A stretch of DNA of 64,000 nt. Origin: Candidatus Binatia bacterium (lineage in GTDB: Bacteria; Desulfobacterota; Binatia; UBA9968). The position numbers and the translations under genes were made by a program. This document shows, one piece after another, positions 34,196 to 51,559 of the stretch. The stretch covers positions 705 to 64,704 of the forward strand of contig DASYRN010000030.1 of NCBI GenBank assembly GCA_036004365.1. Direction: 5' to 3'. The notes under the pieces are model-generated. The model had not been told where the DNA came from. It saw only the letters and a program-made list of their open reading frames with translations, and searched no databases. Numbering within the stretch: position 1 is the stretch's first letter; each line of letters opens with the position of its first letter.

Positions 34196-34329
34196 GCTCT
34201 CTGCGGCTAGGTCGAAGACGGCTCAAAGCCTTGGACCTTAAGAATTTGAAATTCCAGGGGACTTGAGGCAGGCAACCTCGCTTCAACGAAGTTTGACTTG
34301 CCGTCGCCCATTTGTTAGTTCTCTCTTTA

Positions 34330-34426
34330 AGCTAGGGGTGTTCGCCTGGCGGACTGAGAACCTGAGGCGGAAGTTATCGGGTAACCCTCTGAACCTGACC
34401 CGGATAGTGCCGGCGTAGGGAAGCGT
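34330..34426 (+). ncRNA. TPP (thiamine pyrophosphate, THI-box) riboswitch
   Basis: Conserved GGGGTG ... CTGAGA ... ACCC ... GAACCTGACCCGGATAGTGCCGGCGTAGGGAA. Followed by the hairpin ACCGTATTCC...GGATACGGT plus TTTTTT (about 34470-34517) as a terminator expression platform, directly upstream of thiS. Confidence 0.85.
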
Positions 34427-34523
34427 GAGAGTCGCGGTTCCTTGTCGTTTCGCGACGGGACGAGCTTAAGACCGTATTCCCTGGCCACTGGATGTGGTCA
34501 AGTCGGATACGGTTTTTTAATGC

Positions 34524-36448: not shown

Positions 36449-36524
<76 letters not shown>

Positions 36525-42389: not shown

Positions 42390-44552
42390 TCAGGGAGTCG
42401 CCTGGACCTCAAGGGCGCCGAGCCGCTCCTTGCCCTCGGACAACATGGGCAGATCCGAGTCGGCATCTTTCCAAAAATGCAGAAAGCGTCGGTAAGCTTC
42501 GCTTGCGGCACGGAAGTCTTGATTCTCCTCGCACAGCAAGCCGAGACGATAGTGAAACTGGATCATGTGTGGGGAGGAGTGTCGTTCGGACTCCAGGGCC
42601 TTCCGGTAACAAGCAATCGCATTGTCCCGGTCTCCCTTGAAGGTATAAGTCTCCGCAAGAGCCCCCATGTAAACGCGGTGGTATCTTCTGCGTGCAACAA
42701 GCATGGCCTTTTCCAGCCACGTGATAGCCTTCTCATGATCTCCACGGGTGCGGTCGAGCATTGCAACTAAGAACAGGTAGTCGGCATTCTCCTCCCGAGA
42801 CTTGCTACTCAACGTGAGTAGCTCGTTGGCGATCTGCTCGCCCTCCTCAAACCGTTTCATACCGGCGTAGGTCAGGCCGAGCCCCACCTTGGCATCGACA
42901 CTGGAGGAATCGATCGCGAGGGCGCGCTGGTAGGCTTGCAGGCCCTGCTCATAGTTTCCCCTCGAATGATGGAGATCGCCGAGGTAAATCCAAGTCCAAT
43001 CGAAGTCGGGAAGGAGCTCGGAAGTTCGTTGGAGCTGAGCGATCGCCGCGCGATACCGGCCCGCTTTTTCGTAAGTGGCCGCTAGTTGAATGAGAGCCTT
43101 GGGGTGGAAGGGATCGAGCCTTAAGGCCGTTTGATACTCGGCGATCGCCTCCTCGAGCTGGTCACGATGATAGTAAACATCCCCTAGGCTATCATGGGCA
43201 TGGGCGTGGTTAGGATCCAAGAGGAGGACTCGCCTCATGGCTCCCTCCTCCCGGTCCCAGTCCTCTCGCATTTCATAAACGAAGCCGAGGGCGAAATGGG
43301 CTGCTGGCAGGCGTTGGTCGATGCCCAATGCTTTGAGCGCTGCTTCCTCAGCCTTGCCGAGCCACATCGCCTTCTCGTCCCAACCTCTATTGATGAATTG
43401 CGCATAGCAAAGGGAAAGGCCGGCGTAAGCCAGGGCATAATTCGGGTCCAGCTCCAGAGCTTTGAGGTACATCTCGATGGCGGCCCGGTTTCCTCCTCTT
43501 GTGTACTGATAGAAAAGATGCCTGCCGCGGGAGTAGTAGTCGTAGGCCTCAATGCTCTGAGTGGGAATGGCCGAGAGCTGGACTCTCTCGGCCTCACTGA
43601 GGTTCACTCTGAGAGCCTCTGCAATCTTCTCGGAGACCTCGTCTTGGATCTCGAACAGATCATCTAAGTTGCGATCGTACACTTCAGACCAGAGGTGAAA
43701 GCCGTCCACGGCGTTGATGAGCTGGCCCGTGATCCGAAGCCGCTTGCCAAGCTTGCGCACGCTCCCTTCAAGAACGGACCCCACTCCTAATTCCCGCCCT
43801 ACCTCCCGCGGGTCAATGCCGGTTCCCTTGTAGCGGAGGACAGTGCTGCGGGAGGCGACTTTGAGCTCCCGGATCTTCGAGAGGCGGGTGATGATCTCCT
43901 CGGTCATTCCGTCGCTAAAGTACTCGTTCTCCGGATCGGAGCTCATGTTGTGGAACGGGAGAACGGCGATCGACCTCACGCCGGTGCGGGTTTCCGGGGA
44001 CTTGGGCTCACCCGCTGCTTCACTGGGCACCAGATCGTAGATCCTGATTGGCTCTTTGATGTTGCGGAGCTGTCTCTCTCCGAGATCTCGGAAGGAGAGG
44101 CCTTTCTGGTTGCGGACCTGTTGGTAGACCTCGCCGGAGATGTAAACGCCTCCCGGCGGGACCAGGGGCTCGATGCGGCTGGCGACATTGACCCCGCTGC
44201 CAAAGAGGTGCTGGCCCTCCTGTAACAGGTCTCCAAGGTGGATGCCAATGCGAGCCAGGAGCGGCTGGCCGCCTTCGTCGCGCCGATTGCGGGCAGCTAG
44301 CTCTTTCTGGAAGGCGGACGCGGAGCGGACGGCTTGCACGGCGCTGCTGAAGGCCGCAAAAAAACCGTCCCCAACGGTGTCGATGATTTCTCCCGAGTGG
44401 TCTTGAATGGTTTTGCCGGCGATCTGCCGGTATTCCCCGAGGAGCTGGAGAGCCTGGGTTTCGCTCTCCTCCATGAGGTGGCTATAGCCCACCATGTCGC
44501 AGAACACGATTGCTGCGAGGCGCCGCTGAGTGTCGGGGGTTTTGTCAATCAA
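42390..44552 (-). CDS. Class III adenylate/guanylate cyclase with C-terminal TPR-repeat domain
   Basis: N-terminal CHD (IVFCDMVGYSHLM ... DTVGDGFFAAF). Long TPR array in the C-terminal half. Confidence 0.75.
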   Translation of the reverse strand: MIDKTPDTQRRLAAIVFCDMVGYSHLMEESETQALQLLGEYRQIAGKTIQDHSGEIIDTVGDGFFAAFSSAVQAVRSASAFQKELAARNRRDEGGQPLLARIGIHLGDLLQEGQHLFGSGVNVASRIEPLVPPGGVYISGEVYQQVRNQKGLSFRDLGERQLRNIKEPIRIYDLVPSEAAGEPKSPETRTGVRSIAVLPFHNMSSDPENEYFSDGMTEEIITRLSKIRELKVASRSTVLRYKGTGIDPREVGRELGVGSVLEGSVRKLGKRLRITGQLINAVDGFHLWSEVYDRNLDDLFEIQDEVSEKIAEALRVNLSEAERVQLSAIPTQSIEAYDYYSRGRHLFYQYTRGGNRAAIEMYLKALELDPNYALAYAGLSLCYAQFINRGWDEKAMWLGKAEEAALKALGIDQRLPAAHFALGFVYEMREDWDREEGAMRRVLLLDPNHAHAHDSLGDVYYHRDQLEEAIAEYQTALRLDPFHPKALIQLAATYEKAGRYRAAIAQLQRTSELLPDFDWTWIYLGDLHHSRGNYEQGLQAYQRALAIDSSSVDAKVGLGLTYAGMKRFEEGEQIANELLTLSSKSREENADYLFLVAMLDRTRGDHEKAITWLEKAMLVARRRYHRVYMGALAETYTFKGDRDNAIACYRKALESERHSSPHMIQFHYRLGLLCEENQDFRAASEAYRRFLHFWKDADSDLPMLSEGKERLGALEVQATP

Positions 44553-44897
44553 TTTTCTACGACTCCAATCTTGCTTCCTCTGCTCTAGAGGCTGCCCTGT
44601 TCTCCGATCTGGAGCGGCCGCGCCGGGTCGGTTACTGTGCGCCGGTGGGAGCGTCGAAAGGATAGCGGATGCTACAGCGCGGATGAAGCGCCAGTCAAGT
44701 CTAAAGTAGGGGGTCCCTCCTCTGCTGCTAGAACGCCTCCCTTGTCCCCTGAATTTTTCTCACCTGTATCTGGTTCAGAGGATGTAAGGGGGTGTCAATA
44801 GGGATTGACGCGAATCTGCAAAATATATATAAGCATGTGGCGCAATGTTGCATGCCAGTTACGGATATTACATACCAGTTACGAAAGGAGAAGGACC

Positions 44898-46109
44898 ATG
44901 ACTGATCGAAAGAAAGTCCAGGAACAAGGCGCTGAGAAGATCTCACGCCGGAATGTCCTTAAGGCTGCGGTTGCTGCAGGAGGTGCGGCGGCGCTTGGCT
45001 TCCCGGCGATCGTGAAGGCGCAGGGACCGACCACGATGCGCTGGCAGAGTACCTGGCCGCAGAAAGATATCTTTCATGAGTATGCTCTCGACTTCGCCAA
45101 GAAGGTCAACGACATGACCGGCGGCGACCTCAAGATCGAGGTGCTGCCTGCCGGCGCGGTCGTGCCGGCCTTCGGCCTGCTCGACGCCGTGTCAAAGGGC
45201 ACGCTCGACGGCGGTCACGGCGTCCTCGTGTATCATTACGGCAAGAGCACGGCGCTTGCGCTCTGGGGGTCGAGTCCTGCTTACGGCATGGACGCCAACA
45301 TGCTGCTCGCCTGGCACAAGTACGGCGGCGGCAAGGAGCTGCTCGAGAAGCTCTACAAATCGCTTAATGCCAACGTCGTTTCCTTCCCGTACGGTCCAAT
45401 GCCGACCCAGCCGCTCGGCTGGTACAAGAAGGTGATCACCAAACCGGACGACTTCAAGGGTATGAAGTTCCGCACCGTTGGCATCTCGATTGACCTTTTC
45501 ACCGGCCTCGGCGCGGCTGTGAACGCGCTGCCCGGCGGCGAGATCGTGCCGGCGTTGGACCGTGGTCTGATCGAGGCGGCGGAGTTCAACAACGCGTCCT
45601 CCGACCGTGTCCTCGGCTTCCCCGACGTCTCCAAGATTTGTATGTTGCAAAGCTACCACCAGAACGCCGAACAGTTCGAGATCCTGTTTAACAAGACCAA
45701 GTTCGACGCGCTGCCGGAGAAGATGAGGGCGATCATCGCATACGCCGTGGAGGCTGCTTCCCAGGATATGTCGTGGAAAGCGATCGACCGCTACTCGAAA
45801 GACTACATCGAAATGCAAACCAAAGATAAAGTGAGGTTCTATAAGACGCCGGATTCGGTGCTGCAGAAGCAGCTCGTCGTCTTCGACGAGGTCGAGGCGA
45901 AGTATTCCGGGCAGAACCCGATGTTCAAGGAGATCGCCGAATCGCAGCGCAAGTTCGCAGAGCGAGCGGTGAAGTGGGACCTCGACACCAATGTCAGCCG
46001 CCGCATGGCCTACAACCACTACTTCGCCAAGAAAGCCGCCAAGCCGGCAGCCAAGGGCGCGGCCCCGGCGGACAAGCCAGCTGCCAAACCGGAGCCCAAG
46101 AAGAGCTAG
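44898..46109 (+). CDS. dctP: TRAP transporter substrate-binding protein (DctP family) with Tat signal
   Basis: SRRNVLKAAVAAGGAAAL twin-arginine signal. Followed by DctQ- and DctM-like permeases. RBS AAAGGAGAAGG. Confidence 0.6.
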   Translation: MTDRKKVQEQGAEKISRRNVLKAAVAAGGAAALGFPAIVKAQGPTTMRWQSTWPQKDIFHEYALDFAKKVNDMTGGDLKIEVLPAGAVVPAFGLLDAVSKGTLDGGHGVLVYHYGKSTALALWGSSPAYGMDANMLLAWHKYGGGKELLEKLYKSLNANVVSFPYGPMPTQPLGWYKKVITKPDDFKGMKFRTVGISIDLFTGLGAAVNALPGGEIVPALDRGLIEAAEFNNASSDRVLGFPDVSKICMLQSYHQNAEQFEILFNKTKFDALPEKMRAIIAYAVEAASQDMSWKAIDRYSKDYIEMQTKDKVRFYKTPDSVLQKQLVVFDEVEAKYSGQNPMFKEIAESQRKFAERAVKWDLDTNVSRRMAYNHYFAKKAAKPAAKGAAPADKPAAKPEPKKS

Positions 46110-46160
46110 CCGCTCGGTGGCGCATCCCAGCTATCCCGCCAGCCATCCGCCACATGGCGG

Positions 46161-46892
46161 ATGGCTGGCCTCTTTTATACGGCGATGAACGCCTGGGGTC
46201 TGTTCCAAACAATCGACAAGGTCAGCTACTGGTCGGGCAAGGCCTTCGCATGGCTGATTGTGGCGCTGACCTTTGTGGTCTCCGTCGAGGTCTTCAAGCG
46301 CTACATCCTGAACGCGCCGACCGCCTGGATCTTCGACCTCAACAACATGCTATATGGCACCCTCTTCATGATGTGCGGCGCCTACACCTTGGCGCTGAGC
46401 GCGCACGTGCGCGCCGACTTCGTCTACATCTATCTGCGTCCGCGCGGCCAGGCGGCTCTCGACCTGGCGCTGTACTTACTCTTCTTTATCCCGGGCATCC
46501 TGGGGCTCATCTATGCGGGTTACGGTTACGCCGCCGACTCCTGGCGCATCGGGGAGCACTCGACCGTGACTGCGGAGGGGCCGCCCATCTACCACTTCAA
46601 ATCGGTGATCCCGATCGCGGGCGCGCTGGTGATGATCCAAGGATTAGCCGAGATCGTACGTTGCATCGAGTGCCTGCGCACCGGCGCCTGGCCCGCGCGG
46701 CTGGAAGACGTCGAAGAGATCGACGTTATCGACACGCAGCTCTCGCACAGCGAGTACGTGGACGAAGAATCGCGCCAGGCCGCTATGCAGACGGCGCACG
46801 CGATCGACGAGGCCGCGCGCCATCGCAGCGTAATGGAAGAAGGTGTGGTGCACGAGAGAGCCGTCAAAGAGAGCGAGCAGAAGAAGCCGTGA
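46161..46892 (+). CDS. dctQ: TRAP transporter small permease (DctQ-like) with extended acidic C-terminal tail
   Basis: Four TM helices. Located between dctP and dctM. Confidence 0.6.
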   Translation: MAGLFYTAMNAWGLFQTIDKVSYWSGKAFAWLIVALTFVVSVEVFKRYILNAPTAWIFDLNNMLYGTLFMMCGAYTLALSAHVRADFVYIYLRPRGQAALDLALYLLFFIPGILGLIYAGYGYAADSWRIGEHSTVTAEGPPIYHFKSVIPIAGALVMIQGLAEIVRCIECLRTGAWPARLEDVEEIDVIDTQLSHSEYVDEESRQAAMQTAHAIDEAARHRSVMEEGVVHERAVKESEQKKP

Positions 46893-48937
46893 GCGATCCG
46901 TCACTCGGTCTGATGATGCTGGGGCTCATCGTGATCGCGATCATGATGGGCTTCCCGACCGCGTTCACCTTGATGGGCCTCGGGATGATCTTCGGCTACC
47001 TTGCCTTCTGGTACCCGGGCCAGCACTGGTACGACAACCGGATCTTCGACCTGATCGTGCAAAGGACCTACGGGGTGATGACCAACGACACCCTGCTGTC
47101 GGTTCCGCTGTTCGTCTTCATGGGTTACATCATGGAGCGGGCGGCGCTCGTTGACAGGATGTTCCACAGCGTGCAGCTAGCGTTCCGCCGGGTGCCCGCG
47201 TCGCTTGCCGTGACGACGCTCCTGGTGTGCGCGTTCTGGGGCATTGCCTCCGGCATCGTCGGCGCCGTCGTGGTCCTCATGGGCGTGATCGCGTTGCGTC
47301 CGATGCTGAACGCCGGCTACGACGTGCGGCTCGCCTCAGGGGCAATCACTGCGGGCGGCACGCTCGGCATCCTCATCCCGCCCTCGGTGATGCTGATCGT
47401 CTACGCGGCCGTGGCCGGACAGTCGATCGTGAAGCTCTACGCGGCGGCGATGATCCCGGGGTTCTTTCTGACATTCCTCTATCTCGTCTACATCCTCGGC
47501 TGGGCAATCATAAATCCAAAAATCGCGCCGAAGTTGCCGGCGGACAAGTACCGCCTCGTGGTGCCGGAATGGATTCAGCAACTCGAGCGCGGCCGGGCCA
47601 AGCGGGTGGTCGGCGGCCTCATCGCCACCCTGTTCCGACCCGGGCTGCTGCGCGGCGCGACGGCGCCAGACGGCCGCCCGGCAGGCTACGGCCTCATCCT
47701 CAAGAATGTGTTGGCGCTCATGGTGCCGCTGGCGCTGACGGTCGGCACGTTCGGCACAGCCTGGTGGTACGTCGTCATCTACAACGCGCCGACAGCGACG
47801 ACTGCGCTGGCCGGGCCCCCAGCGGAGACTGTCACGGCGCCACCAGCCACAGCACCTACCCCTACCCAGTCCGAGGCGCTTCAAGAGGAGAAACCCCAGG
47901 AACTTGGGGAGGCGGAGTCCGAGGTGCAGAGTACCGAGGCCCCGCGGGCGGCGGACGTGCCGCCCGAGGAGATGGGTTCCGTAACTGAGTCGGGCGTGTC
48001 GGGAGCGAGCAAGGTCCCCGCGCACTTCTACCAGTGGTTCTGGGGATTGGCTACGTTCTCTACGCTTCTGCTCGCGATCTACTATTGGCGCATGGACGGC
48101 GAACAGTTCGAGATCTTGAAGGAGCTGTCGGCGTCGGTGGTGCCGCTTGGGGTGCTCACCGTTGTGGTGCTCGCGGTGATCCTGTTCGGGATCACGACTG
48201 CGACAGAGTCGGCGGCAGTGGGGGCCCTTGGCGCGCTCTATCTGGCGGTCATGGCCAAGTACCCGCGTCAGGTCGGGTGGTGGAGTCTCGCCGGCGTGGT
48301 CGTCGGCGTCGTGCTCGGTTGGGCGCACGCGGATTTTGTGGAGCTGCTTGTGTCGGGATCGCTCGGGGGCACGTTCTTGGGCACGGTCGTGCCGGGGCTC
48401 TGGAACCTCAGGACCTCGCCGGAGCTGCGCGAGAACATGAAGCAATCGGTCTTCCTCACCGCGAAAACGACGGCCATGGTGTGCTGGCTCTTCGTGGGCT
48501 CGGCGCTCTTCTCCGCCGTGTTTGCGCTGCACGGCGGCCAGGGACTGGTCGAGCGGTGGGTGCTCGGCATGAACCTGTCGCCGCTCGGGTTCCAATTCGT
48601 GGCGCAGATGATTATTTTCCTGCTGGGCTGGCCGCTCGAGTGGACCGAGATCATCGTGATCTTTTGCCCCATCTTCATTCCGTTGTTGAGCCACTTTCAA
48701 ATAGACCCGATACTGTTCGGCACTATGGTGGCGGTGAATCTCCAGGCGGCCTTCCTGTCGCCGCCAGTGGCGATGTCGGCGTTCTACTTGAAGGGCGTGG
48801 CCCCGAAGCACGTCACGCTCAACCAGATCTTTGCCGGCATGATGCCGTACATGATCATCGTCTGTATCTGCCTCGCGTTCATGTACATATGGCCCGGCAT
48901 GACGCTCTGGTTGCCGGAGTTCCTCTACGGTGGTTAG
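46889..48937 (+). CDS. dctM: TRAP transporter large permease (DctM) with an about 130-aa low-complexity insertion (Ala/Pro/Thr/Glu-rich)
   Basis: GTG start overlapping the dctQ stop (GTGA). The typical DctM N- and C-halves are separated by a low-complexity insert (APTATTALAGPPAETVTAPPATAPTPTQ...). Confidence 0.7.
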   Translation: MSDPSLGLMMLGLIVIAIMMGFPTAFTLMGLGMIFGYLAFWYPGQHWYDNRIFDLIVQRTYGVMTNDTLLSVPLFVFMGYIMERAALVDRMFHSVQLAFRRVPASLAVTTLLVCAFWGIASGIVGAVVVLMGVIALRPMLNAGYDVRLASGAITAGGTLGILIPPSVMLIVYAAVAGQSIVKLYAAAMIPGFFLTFLYLVYILGWAIINPKIAPKLPADKYRLVVPEWIQQLERGRAKRVVGGLIATLFRPGLLRGATAPDGRPAGYGLILKNVLALMVPLALTVGTFGTAWWYVVIYNAPTATTALAGPPAETVTAPPATAPTPTQSEALQEEKPQELGEAESEVQSTEAPRAADVPPEEMGSVTESGVSGASKVPAHFYQWFWGLATFSTLLLAIYYWRMDGEQFEILKELSASVVPLGVLTVVVLAVILFGITTATESAAVGALGALYLAVMAKYPRQVGWWSLAGVVVGVVLGWAHADFVELLVSGSLGGTFLGTVVPGLWNLRTSPELRENMKQSVFLTAKTTAMVCWLFVGSALFSAVFALHGGQGLVERWVLGMNLSPLGFQFVAQMIIFLLGWPLEWTEIIVIFCPIFIPLLSHFQIDPILFGTMVAVNLQAAFLSPPVAMSAFYLKGVAPKHVTLNQIFAGMMPYMIIVCICLAFMYIWPGMTLWLPEFLYGG

Positions 48938-48939
48938 TG

Positions 48940-49059
48940 CCGTGGCGAGAAGTGTCGCATCGCTGCGTTCTCGGTCGTCGGGCATCCTCAACGTACTAAC
49001 CACGTACGCTTCCGGTGCCCTCCTCTCTCGGGCCTTGCGCTGCTCGCTTCTCGCCACGG
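48940..49059 (+). repeat. Copy 1 of an about 120-bp repeated element with 13-bp terminal inverted repeats (CCGTGGCGAGAAG ... CTTCTCGCCACGG)
   Basis: Near-identical (about 85-90 %) to 50609..50729. Lies directly after the dctM stop. Confidence 0.7.
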
Positions 49060-49261
49060 CAAATGGCTGGACTTGGCGGAAGTCACACTTCGAATTGTAG
49101 AGACATATGTGGCCTTTTGTTTTGCACGTCATTCCCATGAAAGCGGGAATCCGGAGTCTCTCTCATACCTGGACTCCCGGCTTCAGCCTTAGGCTGATCC
49201 GTCCGAAGCCCTGTGGCGGATCCGCGGGAGTGACTATCTCTCTCTCCACCTACAGGAAACA

Positions 49262-50605
49262 GTGATGGACTTGACAAATCTTCACATGCTCTCTGCGTCG
49301 GACGCGGCGCGTCTGATCCGTGACGGCGCCATCAGCTCTGAGCAGTTGGTTGAAGCGTGCTTGGCGCGGGTGCGCGAGATGGACGAGCAAGTGCAGGCCT
49401 GGGCGTTTCTTGATCCGGATCACGCCTTAACACAAGCGCGCGCGGCCGATGAGTTACGCCTCTCCGGACGACCTATCGGTCTGCTGCATGGCGTACCCGT
49501 CGGTATCAAGGACATCTTCGACACCGCCGACATGCCGACCGAGAACGGTTCCGTGCTCCACCTGGGGCGCACGCCCTCCCGTGACGCAACCGTGGTCGCA
49601 ATGTTACGCGGCGCCGGCGCAGTGATTATGGGTAAGACTGTAACGACGGAATTTGCTTACTTCGGGCCCGGCAAGACGCGCAACCCGCACAACCCCGAGC
49701 ACACGCCGGGCGGTTCTTCAAGCGGCTCGGCCGCGGCCGTGGCCGCCGGCATGGTTTCGCTCGCACTCGGCAGCCAGACGAACGGCTCGGTCATTCGCCC
49801 GGCGGCGTTTTGCGGCGTTCTCGGTTTCAAACCAACCTACGGACTGATTCCGCGTTATGGAATACTCACCCTATCCCGGACGCTCGATCACGTTGGACTG
49901 TTCGCGCGCACGGTCGAGGACATCGCGTTGCTGGCGGAGCAACTCGTCGGGTACGACGAGCACGATCCCGACACGCGGCCGCGCGCGCGCATCCCATTCG
50001 TCGAGGTGGCGGCCGAAGAGCCGCCGCTGCCGCCGATGTTCGCGTTCATGAAGACGCCGTACTGGGAGAGCGCAGACGAGGAGACGAAAGAAGGGTTCGC
50101 GGAGCTCATCGAGCAGTTGGGCGATCGTGTCGAGGAGATTGAGCTCTTCCCATCGGCGGCTGAGGCGTGGGAGTGGCATCGCATAATTATGGAAGCCGAG
50201 ATGGCGGCGAATCTCGAGCCGGAGTGGGAACGGGGCCGCGACCGGTTGTCAGAATCGCTGCGGGCGCAGATCGAACGCGGCCGAAAAGTGAGCGCGCTCG
50301 ATTACCAGCGCGCGGTCGCCCAGATTCGACCGATTCACGAGAGTTTTTTAGAGCTGTTCGAGCAGCGCTATGACGCGATCCTGACCCCGGCCGCTCCGGG
50401 CACCGCGCCCAAGGGTCTTGCCTCGACTGGGGACCCCTCATTCTGCACCTTGTGGACGCTTTGTGGAATGCCGGCCATAAGCCTGCCGCTTCTGCAAAGC
50501 GTGAGCGGTCTGCCGCTCGGCGTTCAGCTCATCGGCCCGCGCGATGGCGATGCGCGCCTTCTGCGCACCGCGCGATGGTTGGCCGCCCAGGTCGCGACCG
50601 GCTGA
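49262..50605 (+). CDS. Amidase (amidase-signature family, GatA-like)
   Basis: GGSSSGSAAAVAAG signature with a Ser-cisSer-Lys triad context. Confidence 0.85.
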   Translation: MMDLTNLHMLSASDAARLIRDGAISSEQLVEACLARVREMDEQVQAWAFLDPDHALTQARAADELRLSGRPIGLLHGVPVGIKDIFDTADMPTENGSVLHLGRTPSRDATVVAMLRGAGAVIMGKTVTTEFAYFGPGKTRNPHNPEHTPGGSSSGSAAAVAAGMVSLALGSQTNGSVIRPAAFCGVLGFKPTYGLIPRYGILTLSRTLDHVGLFARTVEDIALLAEQLVGYDEHDPDTRPRARIPFVEVAAEEPPLPPMFAFMKTPYWESADEETKEGFAELIEQLGDRVEEIELFPSAAEAWEWHRIIMEAEMAANLEPEWERGRDRLSESLRAQIERGRKVSALDYQRAVAQIRPIHESFLELFEQRYDAILTPAAPGTAPKGLASTGDPSFCTLWTLCGMPAISLPLLQSVSGLPLGVQLIGPRDGDARLLRTARWLAAQVATG

Positions 50606-50608
50606 CCG

Positions 50609-50729
50609 CCGGCGCGATAAGCGGCGCATCCCTGCGTTCTCGGTCGTCGGGCATCCTCAGCGTAGCAACCACGTACGCTTCCGGCGCCCTCCTCACTCGG
50701 GCCTTGGGCTGCTTGCTTCTCGCGCCGGC
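50609..50729 (+). repeat. Copy 2 of the about 120-bp element (terminal inverted repeats CCGGCGCGATAAG ... CTTCTCGCGCCGG)
   Basis: Same orientation as copy 1. Lies directly after the amidase stop. Confidence 0.7.
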
Positions 50730-50917
50730 GAATCCCCGCTTTGACCGGCGATATACGTTGCCTAACTTCGTTTATCGCCCTTCGCTCTCCCTGCGGCGTA
50801 ACATCTCAAGTACGCCTCATTCGGCTCGGGGCTCGCGCCTCGTTGTGCTCGTTTCTTGGCCCGGCACTTTCCTGGGCGGGGGAGTGGCGCCAGATTGACC
50901 GTCCGGAATAATTTTAG

Positions 50918-51559
50918 CTAATATCTTACTTCCTTCACTGTAGGGGATTTGAGGAGTTTTTCTAGTAGGGGGTTGTGCCGAGCTTTTCTCCCCGAAAGTG
51001 TTATCTCGTAGAAATAACGGTTATCGGACTTCACTTGCTTACTGCTTAGTACTTTTAATTCGCATGAATCGAGTGCGAGGCCCAATTCTCTGACCGCTTC
51101 ATCTTCGGTCGACAATATCACATGGTAGGTCCTGGTAGTGTGGAATCGGTCTACTAGATTCTCGAATTTCCGGAATAAAAAGAGAATAGTCAAGGCCAGG
51201 GCAGTTCCTATAGCACTTATTCCATAATAGCCAGCCCCGATCCCCATCCCTATGGAAGCGACAAACCAAATTGTGGCGGCTGTCGTAAGTCCCAGAACAG
51301 CCTCTCCACGTCGTATGATAGCTCCTGCACCTAAAAAGCCTATGCCCGATACAATTTGCGCGGCAATGCGCGATGAGTCAGTTCCAGGAATAGTTCCAAT
51401 CTTTAAGGAGAAGATGGTGAAAAGCGTTGAGCCAACACAGATCAGCGTATTTGTCCTGAAACCTGCTGGCTTATCATAGAGCTCCCTCTCCCACCCTATG
51501 ATCCCTCCCAAAAGAAGAGCGAATAAAAGCTTAACTAGATCGTCTGCGTCTACCAGCAT
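50918..51559 (-). CDS. mgtC: MgtC/SapB-family protein
   Basis: GWERE motif (GGIIGWERELYDKPAGFRT) plus a C-terminal ACT-like domain. Confidence 0.8.
   Translation of the reverse strand: MLVDADDLVKLLFALLLGGIIGWERELYDKPAGFRTNTLICVGSTLFTIFSLKIGTIPGTDSSRIAAQIVSGIGFLGAGAIIRRGEAVLGLTTAATIWFVASIGMGIGAGYYGISAIGTALALTILFLFRKFENLVDRFHTTRTYHVILSTEDEAVRELGLALDSCELKVLSSKQVKSDNRYFYEITLSGRKARHNPLLEKLLKSPTVKEVRY

Follow-up and report, generated by a model that had tools for sequence, protein, structure and literature searches.

The 64-kb window analysed here (the whole stretch of 64,000 nucleotides taken from contig DASYRN010000030.1 of a Candidatus Binatia bacterium) carries two copies of a small non-coding element, copy A directly behind a TRAP-transporter permease gene (dctM) and copy B directly behind the amidase gene that follows it, together with the remains of a third, copy C. 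In our view copies A and B likely represent separate insertion events of one miniature inverted-repeat transposable element (MITE), a DNA transposon that is non-autonomous, and copy C the decayed product of an earlier insertion from a sister subfamily. The element is a previously undescribed family of a known and fairly ordinary kind, abundant in Rokubacteria/Methylomirabilota, bacteria of soil and groundwater, and also present in Binatia and in some Syntrophobacteraceae. A MITE-like miniature element was among the identities offered in the first-pass annotation of the window, and it is the one supported by the many dispersed copies in many genomes, the flanking TA repeats, the terminal inverted repeats (TIRs) and the absence of coding capacity.

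Element copies in the window

A repeat search of the window returned copies A and B as a direct-repeat family (48939–49064 and 50608–50733) of 126 nt, 87% identical and on the same strand, in good agreement with the two same-strand copies of about 120 bp and 85–90% identity first described. The 25-mer CGTTCTCGGTCGTCGGGCATCCTCA, common to both, has exactly these two occurrences in the window, where shuffled sequences predict none. Copy A is closed by an inverted repeat of 15 nt with 100% identity (48938–48952 / 49047–49061) and copy B by one of 16 nt with 94% identity (50607–50622 / 50715–50730); these are the repeats that had been reported as terminal and 13 bp long, and they are real and somewhat longer, but they form the closing stem of an internal hairpin and are not the ends of the element. 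Both copies are predicted to fold as long hairpins, at -63.4 kcal/mol (z = -7.0) for copy A and -63.5 kcal/mol (z = -3.7) for copy B. The placement a few bases after a stop codon also stands, at even closer range: the stem of copy A begins at the base directly 3' of the dctM TAG (48935–48937), and a single base separates the amidase TGA (50603–50605) from the stem of copy B.

In copy A the TA at 48935–48936 is the putative target and G 48937 is base 1 of the element, such that TA and G together are the dctM stop codon TAG. The hairpin module (48938–49061, plus strand; 147 bits and E 2e-30 with the family covariance model described below) has covarying stems and encloses the conserved core with its apical ACGTAC...GTACG hairpin. 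It is followed by a degenerate 3' module (49062–49097, plus strand), assigned by comparison with the type-2 3' modules described below, in which GGAAGTCACAC (~49079–49088) resembles the terminal GGAGTCACAC of that type. The exact 3' boundary of copy A is uncertain and lies at 49088 or 49097; in the orthologous loci L012 and L078 the copy-A-type 3' module closes with C/TAG (here and below a slash marks the edge of the element). The TAG at 49098–49100 (plus strand) is the putative second copy of the duplicated TA with the target G.

Copy B has a hairpin module at 50607–50730 (plus strand, 134 bits) and a short 3' tail, AATCCCCGCTTTGAC (50731–50745, plus strand), that resembles the 3'-module end ...GGGATTTGAT/TAG of the metagenome locus L064. 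Copy C starts directly 3' of it, with its 5' arm truncated, and occupies approximately 50746–50865 on the plus strand. It is a poor match to the model (17 bits, E 0.1–0.3; nhmmer E 0.05) and has no long hairpin fold (z = -1.6), and it is 88% identical to L018 3328–3431, which scores 48 bits. No intact copies beyond A and B were found in the 64 kb by blastn at word size 7, by nhmmer or by the covariance model run without filters.

The sister subfamily to which copy C belongs has a different core, and its better-preserved relative lies on the opposite strand at L018 3323–3454 (minus strand), directly 3' of the TGA of a convergent 464-aa open frame.

Anatomy of the full element and duplication of TA

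The ~125-nt hairpin does not make up the whole element but only its 5' part. A full element consists of a 5' arm, a ~75-nt conserved core with an internal arm, and usually a 3' module of 5–60 nt; the 5' arm and the core with its internal arm make up the hairpin, and the 3' module ends in a terminal inverted repeat. Most members accordingly extend 5–60 nt 3' of the hairpin, up to a second (C)TAG, and full length is about 130–190 nt. Insertions and deletions between copies disrupt any reading frame, and the element has no coding capacity.

Across the family the 5' logo reads C-T-A-G-Y-G-C-C-G, with nothing conserved upstream of the tag, and the element ends read (C)TAG-YGCCG ... CGGCRC; the 5' tag is CTAG in 69 of 142 copies and GTAG in four. 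In Rokubacteria, type 1 elements have a 3' module of ~57–60 nt ending ...GGGCGAACAAGCNNNC/TAG. The 3' module of type 2 elements is conserved, 44 nt long and closed by ...AATTCGTTGGAGTCACAC, with TAG directly after it in 30 of 35. The ends are clearest in type 3, which reads TA/GCAGGCTGCTGAAAAA ... TTTTTCAGCACCCTGC/TA with TIRs that match at 15 of 16 positions and adjoin the TA; in its CTAG context this is CTAG/CAGGCTGCTGAAAAAG ... TTTTTCAGCACCCTGC/TAG, the 16-nt TIRs starting directly after TA, and the end ...TTTTTCAGCACCCTGC/TA is present in 27 copies. There are also short forms, in which the hairpin is followed by 2–8 nt and then TAG. In the window copies, the clear inverted repeats are those of the internal hairpin arms only.

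The element invariably starts with G and ends with C, and the outermost flank bases vary independently of each other: L007 has CTAG at the 5' end but CTAA at the 3' end, and L012 has TTAG at the 5' end but CTAG at the 3' end. The duplicated unit is therefore TA, not CTAG, and the element runs from G to C. The search for target-site duplications proposed at the outset was productive, with TA at both ends within (C)TAG across the family, although copy A is non-canonical in this respect and copy B preserves no duplication.

Family size, hosts and orthologous loci

A covariance model built from 19 copies identified 167 copies in 132 sources among public contigs, and 873 kb were sampled around these copies as fetched loci L001–L138. 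By exact matching, a 20-mer from the core hits 18 contigs from 11 metagenome-assembled genomes (MAGs), at most four per MAG, all assigned to Rokubacteria/Methylomirabilota, Binatia or Syntrophobacter(aceae)/delta-proteobacteria; a looser two-part pattern hits more than 120 metagenome contigs among the matches listed. Many copies lie at contig ends, which suggests that the repeat breaks assemblies. The element has no match in plasmid, viral-contig and E. coli collections, the last including all complete E. coli genomes, and the elements match no Rfam 15 family, whether at gathering thresholds or with E-values as high as 10. In the literature on repeats and MITEs of Rokubacteria or Methylomirabilis we found no description of this family.

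Four fetched loci, L012, L016, L018 and L078, have a dctM-element-amidase arrangement orthologous to that of the window at ~80% nucleotide identity, and copy A is therefore an old resident of the operon. The arms at this site differ between loci, being of type 2 in L018 and of type 1 in the window, L012 and L016. The first-pass annotation had also raised the possibility that the amidase gene was mobilised as a unit by the two copies that bracket it, which is contradicted by L012 and L018, where dctM, the element and the amidase gene are found together without copy B, and by the nearest relative of copy B, which is the metagenome copy in L064 (92.7% identity over 124 nt, vs 87% to copy A). In L012 nothing element-like follows the amidase TGA; the window and L012 thus differ by the presence of copy B, and the flanks are too diverged for a footprint to be read.

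Some further arrangements among the fetched loci are worth recording. In L004 (5739–6788, minus strand) elements separate three co-directional genes in the same layout as dctM, copy A, amidase and copy B in the window. In L008 (6058–6469) a pair of convergent genes is separated by two elements placed tail to tail, and one of these elements has no long open reading frame (ORF) ending at its tag. Three copies (L026 8962–9129, L128 644–826 and L099 4088–4234) exceed the 130-nt model by 20–55 nt. In the alignment that includes L026 the additional columns fall in the apical loop, which therefore tolerates inserted sequence or nested insertions.

Placement at stop codons

Of 142 evaluable copies, 80 have within their 5' junction the stop codon of an ORF that is 80 aa or longer, and this stop is TAG in 67, TGA in nine and TAA in four, against a background stop usage of 343 TGA, 184 TAG and 92 TAA. 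Both flanks are available for 77 copies; in 18 of these a convergent gene has its stop within the 3' junction, and 11 serve a gene on each side. No function is common to the upstream genes, which include those for DctM, amidase, FtsW, a GatB-like protein, a short-chain dehydrogenase (SDR), an alcohol dehydrogenase (ADH), ABC permeases, a GlnA-like protein and a TonB receptor.

This placement follows from the target. These genomes are GC-rich and poor in CTAG: in the fetched loci, elements excluded, the tetranucleotide has a frequency of 0.40 per kb (observed/expected 0.42). Of the 305 CTAG sites that carry no element, 48% serve as the stop of an open frame, on either strand, that is 100 aa or longer. 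Because the element begins with G, its 5' junction reads TA+G, which is again TAG, and the upstream protein is unchanged. The rarity of CTAG, the high proportion of free CTAG sites that are stops, and the leading G together explain why the majority of copies are placed precisely at a stop codon. The upstream protein would survive intact if the element inserted into a TAG or TAA stop, and insertions at other CTAG sites, mostly intragenic, would be purged by selection; the TGA and TAA junctions could have followed insertion by changes from TAG to TAA to TGA that keep a stop at each step. A CTAG target, a duplicated TA and a leading G that rebuilds TAG amount to a simple and testable reason why a transposon can occupy stop codons without causing harm.

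A signal for UAG read-through or recoding (PYLIS- or SECIS-like) was considered for these junctions and rejected: type 2 elements have an in-frame TGA or TAA 15 nt downstream, copy B stops after four codons, and insertions and deletions break the frames.

Proposed transposition mechanism and probable history of the copies

The simplest mechanism for such an element is the cut-and-paste movement in trans known from IS630/Tc1-mariner-type MITEs, to which it is similar in being small, non-coding and multicopy, with direct TA repeats in CTAG and inverted repeats that start from the TA. A trans-acting, TA-duplicating DDE transposase would cut and paste it into the TA of CTAG. IS630 itself prefers CTAG, and preferential transposition to TA in 5'-CTAG-3' was reportedly described by Tenzen and Ohtsubo in 1991 (cited in PMC2170065). 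The IS427 group of IS5 is also reported to use CTAG. The transposase would likely be of the IS630/Tc1-mariner family, since insertion into TA with duplication of TA is the hallmark of IS630/Tc1-mariner elements (PMC2170065). Unlike IS630/Tc1-mariner MITEs, the arms of the element differ by subfamily while a ~75-nt internal core is conserved, and the element is asymmetric, with a single 5' arm and two 3' arms, one internal and the other terminal.

In the window, the insertion of copy A into the stop codon of dctM would be old and kept by vertical descent. Copy B would have arrived later at the amidase stop, beside the relic copy C, pushing this older copy downstream. Once inserted, an element may be transcribed as an intercistronic or 3'-untranslated hairpin, predicted at about -63 kcal/mol, and may influence how the mRNA is processed or how stable it is.

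Several observations weigh against a DDE-type MITE, both in the window and across the family. The 3' TA of copy A (49098–49099) is non-canonical, being preceded by G instead of C; copy B has TGA-C in place of TA-G at its 5' tag and preserves no TA duplication on its 3' side. Only type 3 has strongly matching TIRs; those of type 2 match moderately (8 of 13 positions) and those of type 1 weakly. The core is more than 90% conserved while the arms differ completely, which is the reverse of the usual DDE-MITE pattern. Among the fetched loci there is no precise empty site with a single TA, only filled orthologous sites, and in the 873 kb no autonomous element or transposase with matching ends was found. 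A six-frame regular-expression scan of all loci and the window for the IS630 signature (...YSPxLNPIE...) found none; the sample scanned is small and the test crude. Inverted pairs of 5' ends 0.5–3.5 kb apart do occur, and they enclose ordinary metabolic genes, for E2/E1-beta and acyl-CoA dehydrogenase, and no transposases.

Conserved structure and alternative explanations

The first-pass annotation had suggested folding and covariance analysis across copies, and this revealed a conserved structure. RNAalifold and explicit pair counts on the copy alignments identify strong covariation in the outer stem (~20–25 bp), in an inner helix and in the apical hairpin ACGTAC...GTACG. Overall, 95% of cells hold a pair and changes on both sides are seen at 20 pairs, a level that none of 500 shuffles reaches, and a control with the pairing partner shifted by 1–3 alignment columns gives ~40% paired. 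The arms are of at least three unrelated sequence types, across which the internal-loop sequences TTCTCGGTCGTCGG and CCTCCTCCCTSSGGCCT are near-invariant. Outside two invariant T-G positions, the stems contain 29 G-T pairs vs 64 A-C mismatches, counted over copies that are not phylogenetically independent. As G-T pairs are rarer than A-C mismatches, there is no sign of the sense RNA as the selected folded species; the A-C excess is suggestive of bottom-strand folding or of pairing at the DNA level. Covariation of inverted arms is equally expected of transposon ends or foldback DNA.

There is a small but real chance that the ~75-nt core is itself under selection, either as the recognition structure of a hairpin-specific, single-strand mobilising enzyme or as an RNA device acting after the stop codon. 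The core is made up of UUCUCGGUCGUCGG, a covarying helix, the ACGUAC...GUACG hairpin, a second covarying helix and CCUCCUCCCUSSGGCCU, and it retains more than 90% identity within at least three or four unrelated arm sets and across three phyla. Were it selected, one would be dealing with a novel type of structured mobile element and not with an ordinary DDE MITE. Otherwise the family is a useful but unsurprising addition to the bacterial MITEs; the conserved core within variable arms is the only hint of less ordinary biology.

It is unlikely that the elements are primarily functional cis-acting RNAs placed after stop codons, such as mRNA stabilisers, processing sites or devices sensed by terminating ribosomes, which would have spread or been kept for that function, with mobility being secondary. 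Such a role would be consistent with the covarying helices, and with the two core loops, UUCUCGGUCGUCGG and CCUCCUCCCUSSGGCCU, that remain constant while the adjoining helices and the outer arms change. Copies are found between the cistrons of conserved operons, for example after ftsW and among the three co-directional genes of L004, and in a strict count the hairpin lies beside the stop of the served gene in 52 cases vs 18 with the reverse arrangement. This orientation bias vanishes in a liberal count (32 forward only vs 33 reverse only), the stop-codon position is fully accounted for by the CTAG target and the leading G, and the upstream genes have no common functional theme. There is also no Rfam family, even with E allowed to reach 10, and outside the two invariant U-G positions G-U pairs are rarer than A-C mismatches, the opposite of what selection on a sense RNA would leave; on these same two points a free-standing small RNA, another of the identities first proposed, is not supported. 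As noted, covariation in inverted repeats is what transposon ends and foldback DNA would also display.

We find it quite improbable that the elements are tagged stem-loops of the repetitive extragenic palindromic (REP) type, moved by a REP-associated tyrosine transposase (RAYT) or another IS200/IS605-like single-strand enzyme, with (C)TAG as the cleavage or target tetranucleotide 5' of the hairpin and with no target-site duplication. GTAG-tagged REPs lie less than 20 bp from the 3' ends of upstream ORFs and often supply their TAG stop (Di Nocera et al. 2013, PMC3733652). Our element resembles them in its TAG tag 5' of a stem-loop and in its position near gene 3' ends, between unidirectional or convergent ORFs (PMC3733652), and it is in these two respects, the stop-supplying tag and the location, that the earlier suggestion of a REP or bacterial interspersed mosaic element (BIME) was apt. 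The hairpin with covarying stems as the conserved part would suit a structure-specific single-strand enzyme, and the predominance of A-C mismatches over G-T pairs hints at a folded bottom DNA strand. The REP assignment fails on size and tag: GTAG-tagged REPs are 20–40 nt long, tagged at one end and RAYT-linked, whereas the element is 125–190 nt long, its tag is mainly CTAG (69 copies) and not GTAG (4), and TA(G) recurs at its far end, which ends in a TIR. No RAYT-type HUH...YxxNP motif was found in the 873 kb around the 167 copies.

Integron-type attC sites, with the amidase gene as the cassette bracketed by two of them, are effectively refuted. Vibrio VCRs, which are attC sites, are ~123 bp long, and the likeness is a superficial one of an imperfect palindrome of similar length (~125 nt) that starts from the stop of the preceding gene in the orientation of that gene, with one gene between two copies, to which a possible bottom-strand folding bias may be added. 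The elements lack the RYYYAAC / GTTRRRY (R and L core) boxes at their ends and any integrase context, and are conserved at the centre and variable at the ends, the reverse of attC; they are scattered behind housekeeping and metabolic genes on many contigs without arrays, they are flanked by TA repeats and TIRs, and L012 and L018 have the amidase gene with no downstream copy.

A local tandem duplication at the 3' end of dctM, with neither a wider family nor a conserved structure, had been raised as the outcome that would dispose of a mobile element, and although the window has only two intact copies, 1.67 kb apart in direct orientation, it is refuted by the 167 copies dispersed over 132 unrelated contigs, by the covarying stems, by the closer similarity of copy B to L064 than to copy A, and by the flanks of copies A and B, which have no mutual similarity.

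Comparison with other intergenic repeats

Among known non-coding repeats, the ERIC/IRU elements of enterobacteria and the Correia (NEMIS) elements of Neisseria are imperfect palindromes of ~100–150 bp that are flanked by a TA duplication and are found in transcribed intergenic regions near gene ends. They fold into long RNA hairpins able to alter mRNA stability. The element described here is like both in its size, its TA duplication and its long hairpin. It differs in host phyla, in having no sequence match in all complete E. coli genomes, and in a first base that systematically rebuilds a TAG stop.

As a MITE, the family accounts for a conspicuous repeat of Rokubacteria/Methylomirabilota, Binatia and some Syntrophobacteraceae that breaks assemblies and forms intercistronic spacers. 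In annotation, the corresponding stretches of ~125–190 nt 3' of stop codons should not be called genes, terminators or small RNAs.

Operon context and other features of the window

The block at 44500–51000 contains dctP (44805–46109), the DctM-family permease gene and the amidase gene, and has 60–65% GC, vs 54% for the whole window. It is syntenic, at ~80% nucleotide identity, with the Syntrophobacter(aceae)/delta-proteobacterial MAG contigs L012, L016 and L018, and the similarity ends with the operon. The TRAP-amidase operon is a probable horizontally acquired island from a high-GC donor lineage, which carried the MITE along.

In the ORF list, the gene for the DctM-family TRAP transporter large permease spans 45974–48937 (plus strand; Pfam DctM, E 4e-56), and its true start is probably downstream of 45974. 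The orthologous C-termini in L012, L016, L018 and L078 read ...LPEFLYG[GNQ] up to the stop. The amidase gene (49265–50605, plus strand; Pfam Amidase, E 4e-96) has orthologues in L012 and L018, from which its ATG at 49265 was deduced, the ORF list having a GTG at 49262; an exact-protein look-up returned no identical sequence on record.

Between copy A and the amidase start there are ~160 nt (49101–49261) that are missing from the orthologous L012 and L018. A 9-bp inverted repeat (GTCATTCCC ... GGGAGTGAC) closes this stretch, which has a weak fold (z = -2.0) and no further copy in the window or the fetched loci, and which may be a further small element that inserted here.

Just upstream of the TRAP operon, 42390–44552 (minus strand) encodes a 720-aa protein with an N-terminal adenylate/guanylate cyclase domain and a long TPR array. 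At gathering thresholds the sole Rfam matches in the window are a TPP riboswitch (34324–34438, plus strand; 71.7 bits) and a tRNA (36449–36521, plus strand; 73.4 bits).

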